A model generated the notes under the pieces. The model searched no databases. It was not told where the DNA came from and worked only from the letters and a program-made list of their open reading frames with translations. From Promethearchaeota archaeon (lineage in GTDB: Archaea > Asgardarchaeota > Lokiarchaeia > Sigyniarchaeales > SOKP01), in NCBI GenBank assembly GCA_030603385.1, contig JAUVXW010000001.1, positions 192,001 through 256,000 on the forward strand: a DNA stretch of 64,000 bases. Direction: 5' to 3'. The translations under genes and the position numbers were made by a program. This document shows positions 22,774 to 32,125 of the stretch, piece after piece; within the stretch, counting starts at the first letter, position 1, and each line of letters opens with the position of its first letter.

Positions 22774-22940
22774 TATTAATTATTTAAATTATAACCAAAA
22801 ATTAAACTCTTTTAAACTTCAATTGAAATTCTCGCTGAAAATGATAAAATTTTTATTTTTAAATAAAACCACTTAGTATTTTCTTCTAATAGGTTCAACT
22901 CATATTTATTAAAAAACTCTGAAGGTGATTTCTTTATCTA

Positions 22941-23963
22941 TTATAACGTGTGATTATTTCTTTTCTTTTTTAATGTTCTATACACAGTACCTATTATTAA
23001 AATAAATAATGAACTAACTAGGAGTCCAATGTCATATCCTGGAATCTTTACGCTACTCGTATTTCGCTCTGGACATTCTATTAATGGATAATTATCTTGA
23101 TTTCCTGCAGAGCCAGAAATATTATAGGGAATATCCCCAATACCATCATCATCCACATCATTGTAAGGATAATCATCCCAATAATTTCCTATAATTCCAT
23201 TATCCCAATAATTGTTAATACCATCATCTAATGCATTAGAAGTATTATTAAGACAATTTAAGTATACCTGATTATTCGAAGTATTAGAATATAAAGCGAT
23301 CCCATAATTTCCATTATCCTTGATAATATTCTCCGAAATGACATTATTCTCACAACCAGGATGCAAACATATTCCAACATCTAGGTTACCTGACACAATA
23401 TTGTGTGAAATTGTATTATTACGAGTGTGACCACCCGAAGCATCTAATATTATTCCAAAAACTAATCCGTTTGAAGCATTATTATTTGAAATTATATTGT
23501 AGCTTGAATTTCCCATATATATTAATGCTCCTGTATTTACTGCCATACTATTCTCCGTTATTTTACCATTAGAAACATTCCCTAGTACAATTCCTGGATA
23601 TCCAGATGATATGAAATGGCAATCTTTTATTATAAAATACTTCATAGAATTGCTAATAATTAAGGGGATGGTAGGAATGCTGGGAATATTGAAGATATGA
23701 TTCTTTATAATAAATGGATTACTTGATGTTCCAGATCCAGTACAATAACCTTGATCTTTTGCCCAGCTCCAATTTGTAAGGCTCCCAGGAAGGTCGTTTA
23801 TCCATATTGGAGTATCATATATTGTAGAAATTTGTGGAATATCTTTTCTAGAAATTTCCTCAGATTTATGATGTATAATGTATGGAATGCTGAAATAGAG
23901 AGGAGGTATAAACAAAGTCACTATTAGTGAATAAACTAAGAATCTTTTTGCATTTATTTTCAT
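22941..23963 (-). CDS. Cell-surface NosD/CASH beta-helix protein with IPGY-TM-basic (Loki-CTERM-like) anchor
   Basis: N-terminal TM, GSGTSSNPFII, Asn-rich beta-helix repeats, GNYWDDY...DGIGDIPY...DNYPL, C-terminal IPGY + TM + KKKR. Confidence 0.85.
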   Translation of the reverse strand: MKINAKRFLVYSLIVTLFIPPLYFSIPYIIHHKSEEISRKDIPQISTIYDTPIWINDLPGSLTNWSWAKDQGYCTGSGTSSNPFIIKNHIFNIPSIPTIPLIISNSMKYFIIKDCHFISSGYPGIVLGNVSNGKITENSMAVNTGALIYMGNSSYNIISNNNASNGLVFGIILDASGGHTRNNTISHNIVSGNLDVGICLHPGCENNVISENIIKDNGNYGIALYSNTSNNQVYLNCLNNTSNALDDGINNYWDNGIIGNYWDDYPYNDVDDDGIGDIPYNISGSAGNQDNYPLIECPERNTSSVKIPGYDIGLLVSSLFILIIGTVYRTLKKKRNNHTL

Positions 23964-24216
23964 TAATCTAAACCGATTTAAGTCTTAAATTTTATTTGGA
24001 TTATAGTTTAATCAAATGATTTTATTTATTAATATTCCTATTATTAACTTTTTTTGAAATTCTATTTCAATAACTGGTCAGTCTTTTAATAAACTCCTTT
24101 TTTAACGATTTTGAATTCAATTTTTCTATTAACATAGATGCAATCCTAAGGTTCTTCTTTTCCAAAAAACTGTTAATTAGGATTGTTAGAGTTGCATCTA
24201 AATTAGTTTTTTATTA

Positions 24217-24507
24217 ATGTATGATATTACAAATGCTCAAACGTTAAAGCGATTATCTGAGTGGGTTCAACTAGCGAAGAACTATAAAGAGGATGTCCCA
24301 ATTTTATTAGTGGGAAATAAAATTGATTTGGAACAGAAAAGAGAAGTCTCTAAAGAGCAAATTGAAAGATTTAAAGTAAATAACAAAATATCAGAATCGA
24401 TGGAGATCTCTCTAGAAACGGGAGAAAATGTGGAAGAGATGTTTTTGAGACTTACAAAAATGCTTCTAAACAAATTAGATGGGAAAAAAAGGAAAAAAAG
24501 GAAATAA
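24217..24507 (+). pseudogene. C-terminal half of a small GTPase (5'-truncated)
   Basis: YDITN, PILLVGNKID (G4), EISLETGENVEE (G5); no G1-G3 in the upstream sequence. Confidence 0.8.
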
Positions 24508-24824
24508 TAGAATTCCTTTAGCAATATTAAAATGAGGATATATATTGGATGTTTCAAGGATAATACAAGGAAATCTTGTTTTATAAGAATAGAAACTCAA
24601 AAATATATAAGATACATTAACTTTTACGATAAAACCAAATTATGGGATATAAAAAAATACAGAGATGGTAAGGAAACTATAGAGAAAAAAGGAACCAAAT
24701 GGATAAATATAAGGAAGGTAAATATAAGGAGTTGAATAAATAAATGAGTGAATTAAGAGAGAAAGTTTTAAGACAAAATGCAATTATAAAACCTTTTTAA
24801 GAAAAGAGCAGGAAGTGAGTAAAA

Positions 24825-25433
24825 TTGGATGATAAAATCAAGAAATTATTGAATTCTGTGAGAGAACTTGGAGATAAGTTAAGAAATGAATCTTTAAAAA
24901 AAAGAGAGAGATTGAAACTCGAAAGGGAATGGAAATTAAAAGATCAGGAGTTAATGAATTATACGAGAAAACTTGAAATGAAAATGAGGGAATCAGAAAT
25001 GGATAGGAGAACTGAAGAGATAAAGAGACTTAGGGAAGAATATAAAAAAATAATGAAAATATCATATAATTCACATCCTAATATAGATCACAGTTGGAAT
25101 CCTTTAAGAATACAACGTACAATTGAAGAAGTATATAAGAAAGCTCAAGAAAAAGAGTTGGATAAAAACAACTTAATGAAAGAGAGTCCTATGATAAAAG
25201 TAAAAGATGAAAAATTTAAAAGATGGCTATTGCGTTATCGATTTAAGGAATTAGCAAAAATAACTCCTGATCCGAAGGCAGTTAGAACTATGCTTTTGGC
25301 TTTTAAAGATTGGGATGAAGGGAAAATTGATATGGAGATGTTAAAAAAAATTTTTGACGAATGTAAAAATCCAAAATTTAATCCTGATGAATTTTTGAAA
25401 AAATATCCTATATTTAAACCAAAAAAGAAATAG
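24825..25433 (+). CDS. Hypothetical charged coiled-coil protein
   Basis: 202-aa ORF rich in K/E; overlaps the start of the next ORF. Confidence 0.6.
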   Translation: MDDKIKKLLNSVRELGDKLRNESLKKRERLKLEREWKLKDQELMNYTRKLEMKMRESEMDRRTEEIKRLREEYKKIMKISYNSHPNIDHSWNPLRIQRTIEEVYKKAQEKELDKNNLMKESPMIKVKDEKFKRWLLRYRFKELAKITPDPKAVRTMLLAFKDWDEGKIDMEMLKKIFDECKNPKFNPDEFLKKYPIFKPKKK

Positions 25434-27685
25434 TGAGTTCAGAATCGCAAAAGCAAAGCCATTCAACTGAAGAAGCTGATAATAAAAGCGAAAGTGAAAC
25501 GGTTTCAAAGAATACGTTAGATTTAAGAGAAAAATACAGGCAAAAAACAGGGAAGAGACCGATTTACAATAAAAAGGAGACTAAAGGTTTTCTCTCGTGG
25601 TTAGAAAGACAAAAGAAATTAGCCCTAAAAATGAAACAAGAAAAGAAGGAAGAACAAATCGGGGAAACAAAGGAAGCGTGGCAAATCCTCTTAGAAAAAT
25701 GGGTATGGGAAGCTAACGGATCTAAAATCTCAAAAGAAGTTAATGAAGAGCTTATAGATATTATTAGGAAATATTAAAAGTTTAGAAATATATATCTGAA
25801 ATTGATTAATTTACTCGAAAAAAGAAATCTAACTAAAGAAGAAGATGAAGCTATTGAAAAATTGTTTAAAAAACTTGAACAAGTAAGTCGAATTCAAGCG
25901 AATATGTTTACAAATCTCAGAGCCTTTCGATCATTATATAATCAATATCATATATGGGACATGAATCGAATTTTAAAAGAGCGTGAATAATTCATAAAAC
26001 ACCTTAATCAGAAGTTACAGAATCTTAAAATTGATGAAGCGACCCCGCAAGTTGTTAAAAAATATTGGAAGGAGATTTTAAAAGAAAATTTACATAAAAT
26101 AACAACTTTAAGTTTGAATCAAAAATCACAAATTGTTAAGATCATCCAAAAAGATACATTAAATGAAGAAGACAAGAGAGAATTCGTCTCAGTTCTAAAA
26201 AAACTTCCAATAGAGGATTTGATTTCGTTATTAGGAAAGGATTTTGAAAAACACTCAAAAAATTATGTAAAATGGGATTGGGACTTCTATGAATATATTA
26301 AAAAAGATATGCTTACTTCTTACATAAAGAAAAATGAATCAATTTTGTTTTTAGAAAAAAATGTTTCTGTAGAAACACAGAATGACAAACGCACGGATTA
26401 TTCTACCCTTCAATTTATTGATAATCTTATTAGGGAAATCACAAATATTGCTCCTTCAGACTTAGTCAGGATTAGTGGTAAGAGTGCTGGTAAGATTTCG
26501 TTAACTTGGGTCAGTAAAAATATATTTAAGAGACCTGGTGGCTATTTATCAAAAGTTCGCCAGTGGATTTTAAATCCTAACAATGATAATTATAATCCAG
26601 AATTTAAATTCGCTTTATCTGATTTAGATACTGTGATGGAAAGCTTAAAGTATTATGCTAGAGAGTGGCGAGAATCTATTAAGGAGTGTTGTGTAATTTT
26701 TGATTTATATTCTCTTTTAAATAACTTAAAACAAGTTCCTAATCAACAATTTCATATTTATAACCCAAATCTCAACTTTAGGTTCTTTAGTAATATTAAC
26801 GATAGAGTCAATAGTAAAAAAACCAACTATTGGCTTGGGTTTTTATGTGCAGATGGCTATACCCAAAAGGGATATTCATTAGGTATAACTTTATCACGTA
26901 AAGATCGAGATCAATTAATTAGATTTTGTCAGGATATAGGTTTAAATCCTTCACAAAAGGTAAAGAATTTTGAGAGGGAACTCAATGGAAAAATATACGA
27001 ACAATCAAGAGTGACATTTGGTTGCAAGCCTATGATTATTAATCTCTTAGAATTAAATTATAAGGAAGTTCCAGAGTTTATTAAAATTTCTAGGGACGCT
27101 TCAAATGATTCAGATGCATTAGCTTGGTTATTTGGATTATATGACGGTGATGGTCAACAAGGAAAGACTTCAATTTACTCTACTAAACGTCAACTTTTAG
27201 AACAAATCAGAACTAGTTTTAACGTTCCTAATGAAGTGTATAAAGCTAAAGATCCAAGAATAGAGTTAGATGTCTACGGATATCCTAAACTTGACTCACA
27301 TGGTGACCCTGTATTAACTAAGACTCTTTATGTTTTACGCTTGGGTCCAAGTTTATTTAATAAAATTATGGATAATTATAGAGATAGTATGCCAAGAAAG
27401 AGGAAATACTTTGATGAAAGAATAGATGCTGCAATAAAATTAAAAAGATTATTCAGTAATAAAAGAGAACTTCTTCAAGGCTTAGTGGACCAGCTTCCAA
27501 CCACTCAAATCTTGTTAATATTACAAAAAACCATTGGTGTATCTCGAAACGCGTTATATAATTTGATAGTTGAATGGAATATTGTTCTTCCTCCTGTTGG
27601 ATATTGGAATACTAAAGAGGGGAAGAGTAAAAAACAGTTCCCTCAGTGGTTTATTGATACCGTGGGTTATATTGGTGAAATATAG
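25433..27685 (+). pseudogene. About 750-codon gene with C-terminal two-motif LAGLIDADG-like domain, interrupted by two in-frame TAA
   Basis: ORFs 25433, 25802 and 26114 are in one frame, separated only by TAA 25775-77 and TAA 25988-90; motifs YWLGFLCADG and AWLFGLYDGDG; the 26114-27685 part is still open. Confidence 0.7.
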
Positions 27686-27870
27686 CTAAAATTATAAATT
27701 TGAAAATCACAAATTTTTTATCTTTTGGTGTATTTTTTTTCTTACAGTGAAAAGCTTGTCACCTTTTTTCTTTAAAAATTGTCTTATTAAAATTATAAGA
27801 GGATGTTTTCTTCCATGAAGGATCCTTTTGTTCTTAAAAAAAATAACGCTTATAGAGGTATTTTAAATAT

Positions 27871-27876
27871 GGAGGT
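27871..27876 (+). promoter_or_regulatory. Shine-Dalgarno GGAGGT of rpoA'
   Basis: Ends 9 nt before ATG 27886, supporting it as the true start. Confidence 0.75.
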
Positions 27877-27885
27877 ATGTAGTTC

Positions 27886-30873
27886 ATGAGCTATACGTTC
27901 TCACGCACTAAAATGATAGAAAAAATCAAGTTTGGTTTGCTTAGTCCAGATGAAATTCGTAAGATGTCTGCTGCCCGAATTATTACGGCTGACACTTATG
28001 ATGAGGACGGACTCTGAATTTTATTTCGGAATTCAGACGTAATTCCCATCCCATCTGGCTTAATGGACCAACGGCTCGGAACGATTGAGCCTGGTCAAAG
28101 ATGTCAGACATGTGGTAATTTAGTTTCAAATTGTATGGGTCATTTTGGCCATATAGAATTAGCACGTCCCGTTATTCATGTAGGATACTCAAAGAAAGTT
28201 TTAAAAGTGTTACGCAGTATCTGTCCGGATTGCTCTCGTTTAATGCTAACTGAAGAGGAAAAAGAGGAATTCAGACAAGAGCAAATAAAACATAGAAAGA
28301 TTTTTTTCGAGGGGGATGAAGAAGCTTCGAAACTCGTATTTAAACGTGCCAGAAAAGCTAAAAATTGTCCTTATTGCGGTACTAAGAAGAAAAAAATTAT
28401 TATTGAGAAACCTACCACATTTTATGAAGAAGAAGAAGGAAAAGGTTCCCGCAGAATAACACCTATAGAGATTCTAGAACGTCTTAAGAAGATGAGTGAT
28501 GTTGATCTTAGAATCTTAGGTATTTCCCCTGAAAATGCTAGACTTGAGTGGGTAATTTTTACCGTGCTCCCTATCCCCCCTGTATGTGCAAGACCATCAA
28601 TTACTTTAGATAGTGGTATCCGTTCTGAAGATGATCTAACACATAAATTAGTAGATGTTATACGAATTAATCAAAGATTAAGAGAAAATATTGATGCAGG
28701 AGCACCTCATTTAATTGTAGAAGATCTTTGGGAATTATTACAATATCATATTACCACATATTTTGATAATCAAGTTTCTGGGATACCACCTGCAAGACAT
28801 CGTTCTGGAAGAGCCCTTAGAACCCTAACTCAAAGATTAAAAGGTAAAGAGGGTAGATTTAGAAGTAATTTAAGTGGCAAAAGAGTGGATTTTTCTGCGA
28901 GAAGTGTAATTTCGCCTAATCCATATATAAGTATAAATGAAGTAGGTGTACCTATAGAGATAGCGAAAATTTTAACTATCCCCACTAATGTTAATGATTG
29001 GAATATTGAAGAAATGAAACAAATGGTCCTAAATGGACCTGTTCATCATCCTGGAGCTAATTACATCATACGGAGTGATCGTAGAAGAATTGACCTACGT
29101 TATGTTAAAAATAGAAAAATTATTGCAGATATGTTAGCACCAGGATTCACTGTTGAGCGTCATTTGGATGATGGAGACTTAGTATTATTTAATCGTCAAC
29201 CATCGCTCCATAGAATGTCGATAATGGCACATGAAGTAAAAATCATGGAAGGGCGAACTTTTAGATTAAATTTAACTGTATGCCCTCCTTATAACGCTGA
29301 TTTCGATGGAGATGAAATGAATTTACATGTACCTCAAAGTGAAGAGGCTCGAACAGAAGCAGAATTGCTTCTTAAAGTACAAAACCACATATTGTCACCC
29401 CGTTTTGGAGGTCCAATTTTAGGAGGAATTCAAGATTTTATTTCAAGTGTTTTTCAATTTACGAGTAAAAACTCTCTATACAATAAAAAAGAGGCATTAA
29501 ACTTATTTTATATTGGAGGGATATTTGAAGATAAACCTGATTTTAGTTTAGAACAATTAACTCCTATAACAACTGATCCAGAACCTTTATATTCTGGTAA
29601 AGATATATTCAGTAGCTTATTTCCTGATGATTTAAACTTAAAAGTTAAATCAAAATTTTGTAAAAAATGTGACGTATGTGAAGAAGAAAACTGCGCTTAT
29701 GATGCTTATGTTGTAATTAAAAATGGAAGGCTAATAACTGGAACAATAGATGAAAATTCCTTCGGTGCTATGCAACCAAATAGTATCTTGGCGCGAATTA
29801 TTAAGGATCATGGAAATGCGCGTGGTAGACAGTTTTTAGATAGCGCTACTAAACTGTTGCTGGGCGTTATTCGGAAAAATGGTATGACAATGGGATTGGA
29901 TGAGGTTTATGTACATGGTCATGCATATGATGTAATTGAAAAAATATTAAAGGACGGAAATGAAGAGTCTAACAAACTAATAAAAGCCTTTCGTGAAAAT
30001 GATACTACTATTCTTAAAAGAGCACCTGGCCGTTCTATGAGAGAAACTTTGGAATTGAGAATACGCGGGGCATTGGCAGAGGCCCAAAAAGAAGCAATAG
30101 AATCAGCAGCTGATTTCATAGGAGATGAAGCACACTCAGTTATTATGACTAAATCTGGAGCAAGAGGAAATTTATTAAACTTAGGAATGATGTCTGCTGT
30201 TGTGGGACAACAAGCTATAAGAGGTGAAAGAATTAACAGAGGTTATGTAGGGAGTAGGAGAACATTACCTCATTTTAAAGTTGACGACCTTTCACCAAAA
30301 TCTAGAGGTTTTGTATCTTCATCTTATCGAAATGGGTTAAAACCTGTAGAATTCTTCTTTCATGCAATGGGTGGGAGAGAAGGACTCGTTGATACAGCAG
30401 TAAGAACATCTCAGAGTGGATATATGCAGAGAAGATTAGTAAATGCATTACAAGATATGGTTGTAGAAAATGACGGAACTGTTAGAAATTCTGACAAGAA
30501 CATAATTCAGTTTAAATTTGGCGACGATGGTATAGATGCAATGCATACTGATCATGGTTCAGCAGTAAATTTGGATGTGTTATTATTAAAAGCAAAAGCT
30601 CTTGATGTAGGAGAGATTCGTGAAGAAATTAAGCAAGAATCTATCTCTCGAAAAGCTACTTCTAAAGCAAAAAAAGCTATTGATGTGAAACCTAAGGAAA
30701 AGGCTCCTCCAAAAGAAAAGCCCAAAAAAGAAATAAAACCTAAAAAAAAAGAAAAGGTTCATGATGAAGATACATCGATAAAGCAATTTGAAGACGAAAC
30801 TGGAAAGAAGGCTATTTGGAGAGGGAAAGAAACAAAAGCTTATATAGATTGGAAGCAAGAAAAATTAGGATAA
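27886..30873 (+). CDS. rpo1N: RNA polymerase subunit A' (Rpo1N), two exons (27886-28012 + 28043-30873), about 985 aa spliced
   Basis: Exon 1 encodes [42 protein letters not shown]; exon 2 [12 protein letters not shown]..., [28 protein letters not shown]. Confidence 0.95.
28013..28042 (+). other. Predicted 30-nt BHB intron in rpoA' mRNA
   Basis: In-frame TGA 28015-17 inside hairpin CUGAAUU/AAUUCAG; central helix ACGG/ACGU (3 of 4 bp), bulges ACU and AAU; excision gives DEDG-L-PIP. Confidence 0.8.

Positions 30874-30925: not shown

Positions 30926-32125
<1,200 letters not shown>

Follow-up and report, generated by a model that had tools for sequence, protein, structure and literature searches.

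The gene rpoA', which encodes subunit A' of the archaeal RNA polymerase (RNAP), is interrupted by a 30-nt insert at positions 28013-28042 (plus strand) of the Promethearchaeota DNA analysed here, a window of 64,000 nucleotides (G000:C4:192001-256000). Given its exact boundaries, frame-breaking homologues, conserved flanking exons, covarying base pairs and the presence of two EndA endonuclease genes and an RtcB ligase gene in the same genome, the insert is very probably a bulge-helix-bulge (BHB) intron of the rpoA' mRNA that is spliced by the tRNA-splicing machinery. This had been the central claim of an earlier reading of the DNA letters (the sequence-only reading) and our analysis supports it. 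The genome, G000, is metagenome-assembled and comprises 3.9 Mb with approximately 30% G+C, at 94% completeness and 7% estimated contamination.

The start codon of rpoA' was found to be ATG 27886, which lies 9 nt downstream of a Shine-Dalgarno-like GGAGGT (27871-27876), and the same start and peptide are present in the relatives. Exon 1 (27886-28012, plus strand, assigned by translation and Pfam) has 127 nt and provides codons 1-42 and the first base of codon 43, whereas exon 2, including the stop codon, extends over 28043-30873 and carries Pfam Rpb1 domains 1-5. An in-frame TGA (28015-28017) is located within the insert, and the reading frame after it is open to 30873. Both the start with its ribosome-binding site and the in-frame TGA are as the sequence-only reading had given them. 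As a result of the interruption the gene appears as two open reading frames (ORFs). Residues 9-41 of the first, a 43-aa ORF, match positions 2-34 of RNA_pol_Rpb1_1, and the second, a 936-aa ORF from Met 28063, matches positions 44-312 of the same domain together with domains 2-5. The codons at 28043-28062 (PIPSGL) precede the first ATG of exon 2 (28063) and have no start codon of their own. In a search of genome G000, rpoA' and its exon 1 were single-copy, and an exact look-up of the 936-aa product returned no record.

Compared with intron-less relatives, G000 has 30 extra bases at 28013-28042, and boundaries at 28014-28043 would yield the identical product because of a T/T ambiguity. We searched all 54 genomes of the genus, and the wider set consists of 145 genomes with a match. 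The sequence DEDGLPIPSG was uninterrupted at this site in 28 out of 28 aligned relatives from the same genus and the same order, and this part of the gene is continuous in about 125 of the 145 genomes. The ten extra codons noted earlier against the archaeal consensus are therefore absent from all 28 relatives, and the proposed check that intron-less orthologues should read DEDGLPIP came out as predicted. Deletion of the insert produces the junction GACGGAC|TTCCC (G-L-P), which is the DNA sequence of the intron-less L010, GACGGACTTCC, so the cuts suggested by the earlier reading agree with the orthologues even at the DNA level. The predicted spliced junction is GACGGAC|TTCCCATC in a product 30 nt shorter. 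The cuts predicted from the BHB motif (after 28012 and after 28042) coincide with the boundaries obtained from the intron-less orthologues, and cuts predicted in this way give a functional junction in all 22 rpoA' introns examined. The insert was thereby confirmed as real and exactly bounded.

The insert and its flanks can be folded into a BHB motif with both flanking helices, h between the exons and h' within the intron. The outer helix h is formed between 28000-28006 in exon 1 and 28044-28050 in exon 2, with six of its seven positions paired, one of them as G.U, and a mismatch at A28004 x C28046. The central helix H joins ACGG of exon 1 (28007-28010) to ACGT of the intron (28037-28040) through A-U, C-G and G-C pairs followed by a G28010 x A28037 mismatch, and corresponds to the relaxed form of the motif. 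It is bordered by two 3-nt bulges, AC|U (28011-28013) and AA|U (28041-28043), the vertical lines marking the predicted cuts. The inner helix h' (28014-28022 with 28028-28036, closed by the loop 28023-28027) contains nine pairs, of which seven are Watson-Crick and two are G.U, and its 5' arm holds the TGA. All the pairings and bulges listed in the sequence-only reading are present, while the outer-helix mismatch had gone unmentioned there.

Motifs equal to this one or better (central helix at least 3/4, inner helix at least 7, outer helix at least 6/7, length 20-45) occur in genome G000 at 5.3e-6 per position and length. Together with the location of the motif exactly at the boundaries fixed by the orthologues, this density means that the motif is not there by chance. 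The intron ends in AA at its 3' side in all 21 rpoA' introns, out of 22, whose ends were displayed. The outer helix is weak in some strains and at a second intron site described below, which corresponds to a relaxed motif of the HBh' type. We considered whether three synonymous changes in G000 strengthen the outer helix, but this idea was dropped as the strains L225 and L227 keep the intron with a much weaker helix.

Homologous introns were found at the same site (site 1) in other genomes. G048, a genome of another species in the genus, carries the same 30-nt intron with three changes, one located in the loop and the other two forming a GG>AA replacement that turns two G.U pairs into A-U. If translated, all of these differences would be non-synonymous (F>I, R>Q), yet GG>AA keeps the RNA pairing. 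A 29-nt version is present on a metagenome contig (L146) and one of 31 nt in G096, which belongs to a different genus of this family; both are in the same codon and phase. The position of the G28010 x A28037 mismatch is a G-C pair in both, and the central helix of L146 (AUGG/CCGU) has four of four pairs. The 29- and 31-nt versions shift the frame, and all the spliced products would still restore the same protein junction. The four site-1 sequences are 84.8% paired, compared with 32-46% in slid controls.

The intron was also observed to be widespread in public assemblies, and its age is sufficient for the allele to have diverged. The 43-aa ORF of exon 1, which exists only because the intron carries the TGA, is indexed in 55 blocks of a public assembly collection. 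Each of the ten loci fetched (from JGI, ENA, NCBI and Logan) has the arrangement of G000, with 46 nt between the 43-aa ORF and the long ORF. Eight of the ten carry the G000 intron unchanged and the other two the G048 variant, and exon 1 differs by 6-12 nt among loci with an identical intron. In the contigs of DNA run X1, which may be the source sample of the genome, the insert is present without differences and no intron-less form of the allele occurs. The window comes from a metagenome-assembled genome with some estimated contamination, and the insert was therefore also considered as an error of assembly or sequencing, or as a mutation that had recently inactivated the gene in one bin. The same insert in G048, in ten further assemblies of different sources and studies and in the X1 contigs excludes an artefact, and we regard this explanation as refuted with next to no probability left.

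Two further intron sites were found about 110 nt downstream of site 1 in 16 other genomes of the family, with introns of 30-85 nt. Site 2 is located after the CAT of HFGH and holds 30-nt introns in ten genomes (G017, G045, G069, G043, G062, G135, G095, G104, G152 and G096), a 31-nt intron in G145 and a 40-nt intron in G089. Site 3 lies 4 nt beyond site 2 and holds introns of 85 nt (G058 and G022), 50 nt (G093) and 35 nt (G043 and G062). The removal of every intron at these two sites restores the same conserved protein stretch. All of them have four of four pairs in the central helix, the 35-nt site-3 introns only once the site-2 intron has been removed. The introns of 29-31 nt at sites 1 and 2 share one plan, namely 1 nt, stem, loop, stem and 6 nt ending in AA, and this asymmetry of 1 nt against 6 nt is what the BHB geometry requires. 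Exceptions to the plan are some interrupted stems and the L146 intron, which is offset by one nucleotide.

The site-2 introns show covariation. In the set of five genus-level introns, 94.5% of the cells are paired and five pairs have changed on both sides, so compensatory base changes are present for this set. The covariation score was reached by none of 500 shuffles, and slid registers pair at 24-55%. One of the covarying pairs joins the third base of an exon Gly codon (GGA/GGG) to an intron U/C. In two genomes, G043 (L041) and G062 (L042), codons around 79-81 contain twin introns of 30 nt and 35 nt with a micro-exon of 4 nt, ATAG, between them. Full central and outer helices can form in the second BHB only when the first intron has been removed, which implies ordered splicing of the two. 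According to a broader proposal, the first 80 or so codons of the essential rpoA' gene form a hot spot for EndA-type mini-introns, of which there are 22 instances at three sites, from 19 of the 145 genomes and the metagenome contig. These introns would come and go and would spread between species through recombination with co-conversion of the flanking exons, and the twins would be spliced in order. We give this proposal an even chance of being correct. In other families of the order, the rpoA' matches of G026 (one TGA and one TAG) and G027 (one TGA and one TAA) in a full-length search have internal stops. The match in G070 is split at residue 126/127 by a gap of about 54 nt. These interruptions could be further rpoA' introns elsewhere in the gene.

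The length variants bear directly on the possibility that the insert is handled by the ribosome, either by reading the UGA as selenocysteine, tryptophan or through a near-cognate tRNA with ten extra residues in the product, or by a hop. In phage T4 gene 60, translation bypasses a 50-nt gap, for which matching take-off and landing codons are needed, and Asgard archaea have selenocysteine machinery. Recoding would suit an insert of 30 nt that is in frame and has a single UGA in a hairpin. It does not suit the 29- and 31-nt homologues at site 1 or the introns of 31, 35, 40, 50 and 85 nt at the neighbouring sites, which break the frame or carry several stops, nor the three differences between G000 and G048, which would all be non-synonymous yet retain the RNA pairing. 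A hop finds no matching take-off and landing codons, and the sole downstream GGA (28028-28030) leads into UAA. Programmed bypass and UGA recoding were thus rejected as a class, and recoding of the insert is highly improbable. An intein, which would be a stop-free in-frame insert of at least about 130 codons, was also rejected, since the insert has ten codons with a TGA and its 29- and 31-nt homologues shift the frame.

A different outcome would be that the insert is retained and the gene is split or truncated, with exon 1 giving a 43-aa peptide or nothing and the subunit starting at Met 28063. Gene callers do annotate a 43-aa ORF and a 936-aa ORF, the latter starting at position 778 in every locus, and archaeal RNAP subunits are split at other places, as in A'/A''. 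The behaviour of the exons speaks for a single protein instead. Among intron-bearing alleles that were found via exon 2, 10-27 of 126 nt of exon 1 differ and only 0-3 amino acids change, and the figures among intron-less alleles are the same. Only alleles found via exon 2 were used for this argument; the synonymous-only variation of exon 1 in L225-L234 was rejected as evidence, being circular for loci that had been found by an identical peptide. In the codons at 28043-28062, which precede the ATG at 28063, all variation among strains is synonymous, such as CCC>CCA and ATC>ATA. Judged by these substitution patterns, both exons are shown to be under purifying selection as one protein.

This conservation of the exons, combined with insert changes that would be non-synonymous but keep the pairing, argues against a restart at Met 28063, a split gene and read-through alike. 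There is also no Shine-Dalgarno sequence before 28063, whereas the real start has GGAGGT. A restart would not account for the BHB geometry or for the covariation of the sister introns, and at sites 2 and 3 it would delete the conserved zinc-binding N-terminus. We consider a retained insert with a split or truncated gene very unlikely.

The 5' end of rpoA' resembles other genomes than the remainder of the gene does. G000 and the intron-less G019 are 97-98% identical from about 28086 onward, but only 74-80% identical over the exon sequence of 27886-28085 and 67% identical in the 190 nt upstream. In the same 5' region G000 is 84-92% identical to G048, and G060 is likewise nearer than G019 (84-92%). 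The boundary of this region (27698-28085) is sharp, at about 28085. Strain L233 is identical to G000 over more than 530 nt downstream, and all 17 differences between the two fall in 27891-27984 and 28059-28083, so that 74 nt around the intron (27985-28058) are identical. From these comparisons the 5' end of rpoA' is a mosaic in which the intron and its immediate flanks appear to move as a unit, a pattern expected from acquisition by recombination with co-conversion. The 74-nt core and the mosaic may reflect co-conversion with the intron or a recombination hot spot, and selection on the exon bases that form the BHB could add to the invariant core.

A strain-specific island of 4.8 kb (22881-27697) adjoins the rpoA' promoter region on its upstream side and is missing from this place in G019, G002, G023, G006 and G060. 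It contains a beta-helix-like 347-aa ORF (minus strand), a fragment resembling a small GTPase, ORFs rich in Lys and Glu, and a frame of 564 codons that weakly matches LAGLIDADG_3. Contig C26 carries a copy of 25421-26377 with 84.5% identity. The LAGLIDADG-like ORF (25991-27685) was tried as the homing enzyme of the intron and rejected, since only G000, L226 and L233 have it and different genes lie upstream in the remaining intron-bearing strains. Of the ten metagenome loci, only L226 and L233 have an upstream gene of the island kind, with no consistent link to the intron.

The mosaic structure shows exchange at the DNA level, and a further alternative is that the insert is removed by a mechanism other than EndA and RtcB, such as another endonuclease or excision from DNA. 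It would then be a small palindromic mobile element whose BHB shape is incidental. With its hairpin the insert does resemble a miniature inverted-repeat element, and the BHB is not its minimum-energy fold. A mobile element would not account for the asymmetry of the hairpin (1 nt before, 6 nt after) in nearly all introns of 29-31 nt at sites 1 and 2, or for the four nucleotides before the terminal AA, which complement the local exon each time and covary with a synonymous exon position. A blastn-short search of the insert and its flanks against the whole of genome G000 returned only the self-match, that is, no repeat element or second copy. Excision from DNA is at odds with the DNA contigs, in which every copy of the allele has the intron. 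ARAGORN and Rfam found nothing over the window, and no Rfam family, group I and II introns included, reaches the gathering score there; a self-splicing group I or II intron, whose catalytic RNA core would take up hundreds of nucleotides, was also rejected because the insert has only 30 nt. Removal by such another mechanism is accordingly a very improbable explanation.

The genome encodes the enzymes that splicing of a BHB intron by the tRNA-splicing machinery would use, a splicing endonuclease and an RNA ligase. Two EndA paralogues (PF01974) of about 200 aa each are present in G000, in the regions C44:18795-19019 and C9:36254-36502, and their closest PDB entries are tRNA-splicing endonucleases. 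One is closest to PDB 3p1z_B/3ajv_B (E 8e-36), which we take to be catalytic subunits of a crenarchaeal heterotetramer, and the other is more distant, with 1a79 as its best match (E 5e-22). RtcB is present (C39:18568-19875) with a score of 558 bits. ARAGORN found only 18 tRNA genes in this 94% complete genome of 3.9 Mb, which suggests that most of its tRNA genes are interrupted at non-canonical positions, a situation reported from other Asgard archaea; those with clear introns show a BHB with bulges like AG|U and AA|A. In another protein gene of G000, that of uL11 (G000:C41:~68110-68150, minus strand), the N-terminal domain is interrupted with a frame change between KALVTGG and ASGGPPIGPAVGP, where an insert of about 37 nt is located.

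Several observations weigh against a BHB intron at this site. The central helix of G000 has only three of four pairs, with G opposite A, the outer helix has a mismatch, and in the strains L225 and L227, which carry the same intron, the outer helix is reduced to 2-4 pairs; with a motif as weak as this, only an endonuclease of relaxed specificity would cut. In the nearest-neighbour model the BHB fold has -10.1 kcal/mol compared with -18.4 kcal/mol for the minimum-energy fold, which is in another register, so the fold drawn in the sequence-only reading is not the one favoured by energy. The covariation among the four sequences of site 1 is weak, with 61 of 500 shuffles reaching the score. A genome-wide scan for BHB motifs whose removal joins open frames could not tell introns from gene junctions: shifting the cut by -4 to +4 nt left the counts unchanged, since most of them come from neighbouring genes with hairpins between them, and no intron number was estimated. 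The scan missed rpoA' itself because exon 1 has only 43 codons. Finally, we checked three RNA runs and one DNA run (the runs with this DNA being marine-sediment and cold-seep metagenomes), and over 27500-28055 of this allele there was no RNA contig. A single RNA contig, from run X15, does reach the site, but its allele is that of a relative lacking the intron, so that its loose end GTATGACGAGGATGGGTTACC is not a spliced form.

Cleavage, ligation and the identity of the enzyme are steps that we infer for the rpoA' intron, and they would proceed as follows. In the pre-mRNA, the last 13 nt of exon 1 would be paired in the central helix, where their partner is the 3' end of the intron, and in the outer helix, where it is the start of exon 2, while the intron forms its 9-bp hairpin, thereby placing the two 3-nt bulges on opposite strands, four positions apart. 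A tRNA-splicing endonuclease, probably an (alpha-beta)2 enzyme made of the two EndA paralogues, would cut after 28012 and 28042, in each case after the second nucleotide of the bulge. RtcB would then join the exons to GGAC|UUCCC, and the TGA would be removed with the intron. The spliced mRNA would encode the full 986-aa subunit with DEDG-L-PIPSG. The intron itself most likely lacks any function and is tolerated because its motif can be cleaved; its spread between lineages seems to proceed through recombination at the 5' end of rpoA'.

Downstream of rpoA' on the plus strand, Pfam identified rpoA'' (30929-32125) as the next gene of the operon, followed by L30e (from 32217) and a NusA-like KH protein (from 32616). 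The claim that the gene sits in its normal operon therefore stands for the downstream genes but not for the upstream side, where rpoB is absent in this genus and G000 has the 4.8-kb island with its Lys/Glu-rich ORFs and the weak LAGLIDADG match. The C-terminal tail of RpoA' (30600-30870 of the window; also in L007, L022 and L023) is rich in Lys, Pro and Glu and differs among species through tandem repeats of 18-30 nt. Through its Lys-rich tail the 936-aa query matches many unrelated Lys-rich ORFs.

If rpoA' does require splicing of the tRNA type, mRNA splicing would be part of core gene expression in the archaea nearest to eukaryotes, with a bearing on the origin of intron-containing protein genes and the tolerance of them. 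If the proposed hot spot is also real, the housekeeping mRNAs of the closest archaeal relatives of eukaryotes would have a dynamic exon-intron structure and ordered splicing. There is a practical side as well, as at least ten public assemblies have rpoA' annotated in two pieces, the 43-aa ORF and a subunit truncated at its N-terminus, and genes split in this manner resemble pseudogenes and distort completeness estimates and phylogenomic data sets. The set of rpoA' introns, with its three sites, length variants, micro-exon and strain mosaics, provides a compact test system for the substrate rules of (alpha-beta)2 endonucleases and for the spread of introns.

Two known systems outside archaea resemble the rpoA' case in part. 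In eukaryotes, HAC1/XBP1 mRNA is cleaved by Ire1 and joined by a tRNA ligase or RtcB in the cytoplasm. Both cases involve a small mRNA intron bounded by stem-loops, an endonuclease and a tRNA ligase with no spliceosome, and a removal that alters the frame or the product. They differ in that Ire1 and its motif are not those of the BHB, and HAC1/XBP1 splicing is regulated by stress whereas rpoA' shows no sign of regulation. In T4 gene 60, as is predicted for rpoA', the protein lacks a short, stop-containing gap that forms a hairpin within an essential coding sequence. The rpoA' gene differs in having no matching codons, and neither its BHB geometry nor the covariation and the twin introns can be explained by a bypass.

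Among archaeal systems, the introns of tRNA and rRNA genes share the h-B-H-B-h' motif and the presumed enzymes, EndA and RtcB, as well as repeated gains where the motif can form. The tRNA introns of G000 itself are of similar size, with a comparable BHB and A-rich bulges. The rpoA' intron is unlike these in that the substrate is the coding region of an mRNA, so that excision must be exact to the nucleotide to hold the frame. Asgard tRNA genes are reported to be heavily interrupted, and most Asgard genomes to have two EndA paralogues (2026 preprint, bioRxiv 10.64898/2026.10.13.758758). The Asgard intron papers (bioRxiv 10.64898/2026.10.13.758758; PMC11291895) treat tRNA genes only, and introns of protein genes are unreported there.

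The closest known case is the BHB intron in the pre-mRNA of cbf5, the pseudouridine synthase gene, in Crenarchaeota (Watanabe 2002; Yoshinari 2006; Yokobori 2009, PMC2738675), and in the literature searched cbf5 is the only gene for which endonuclease-mediated splicing within an archaeal coding sequence is confirmed (PMC2738675). In both cases a short intron lies inside an archaeal coding sequence, a relaxed BHB is formed partly from exon sequence, the predicted cuts between the second and third bulge nucleotides match the exon borders, and gain and loss are lineage-specific. The hosts would also be alike in having a hetero-oligomeric splicing endonuclease, predicted for the rpoA' host from its two EndA paralogues. 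While the splicing of cbf5 has been shown by cDNA, that of rpoA' is what we infer. The rpoA' intron would work alike but lies outside the cbf5 intron family, its host gene being rpoA' in an Asgard lineage rather than cbf5 in Desulfurococcales/Sulfolobales, where the intron interrupts the codon of the catalytic Asp. Further differences are that the hosts belong to different phyla and that a stretch of about 115 nt in rpoA' has at least three intron sites, with twin introns on either side of the 4-nt micro-exon in two genomes. What is new relative to the cbf5 case is thus the gene, the lineage, the multiple sites and the twin introns.

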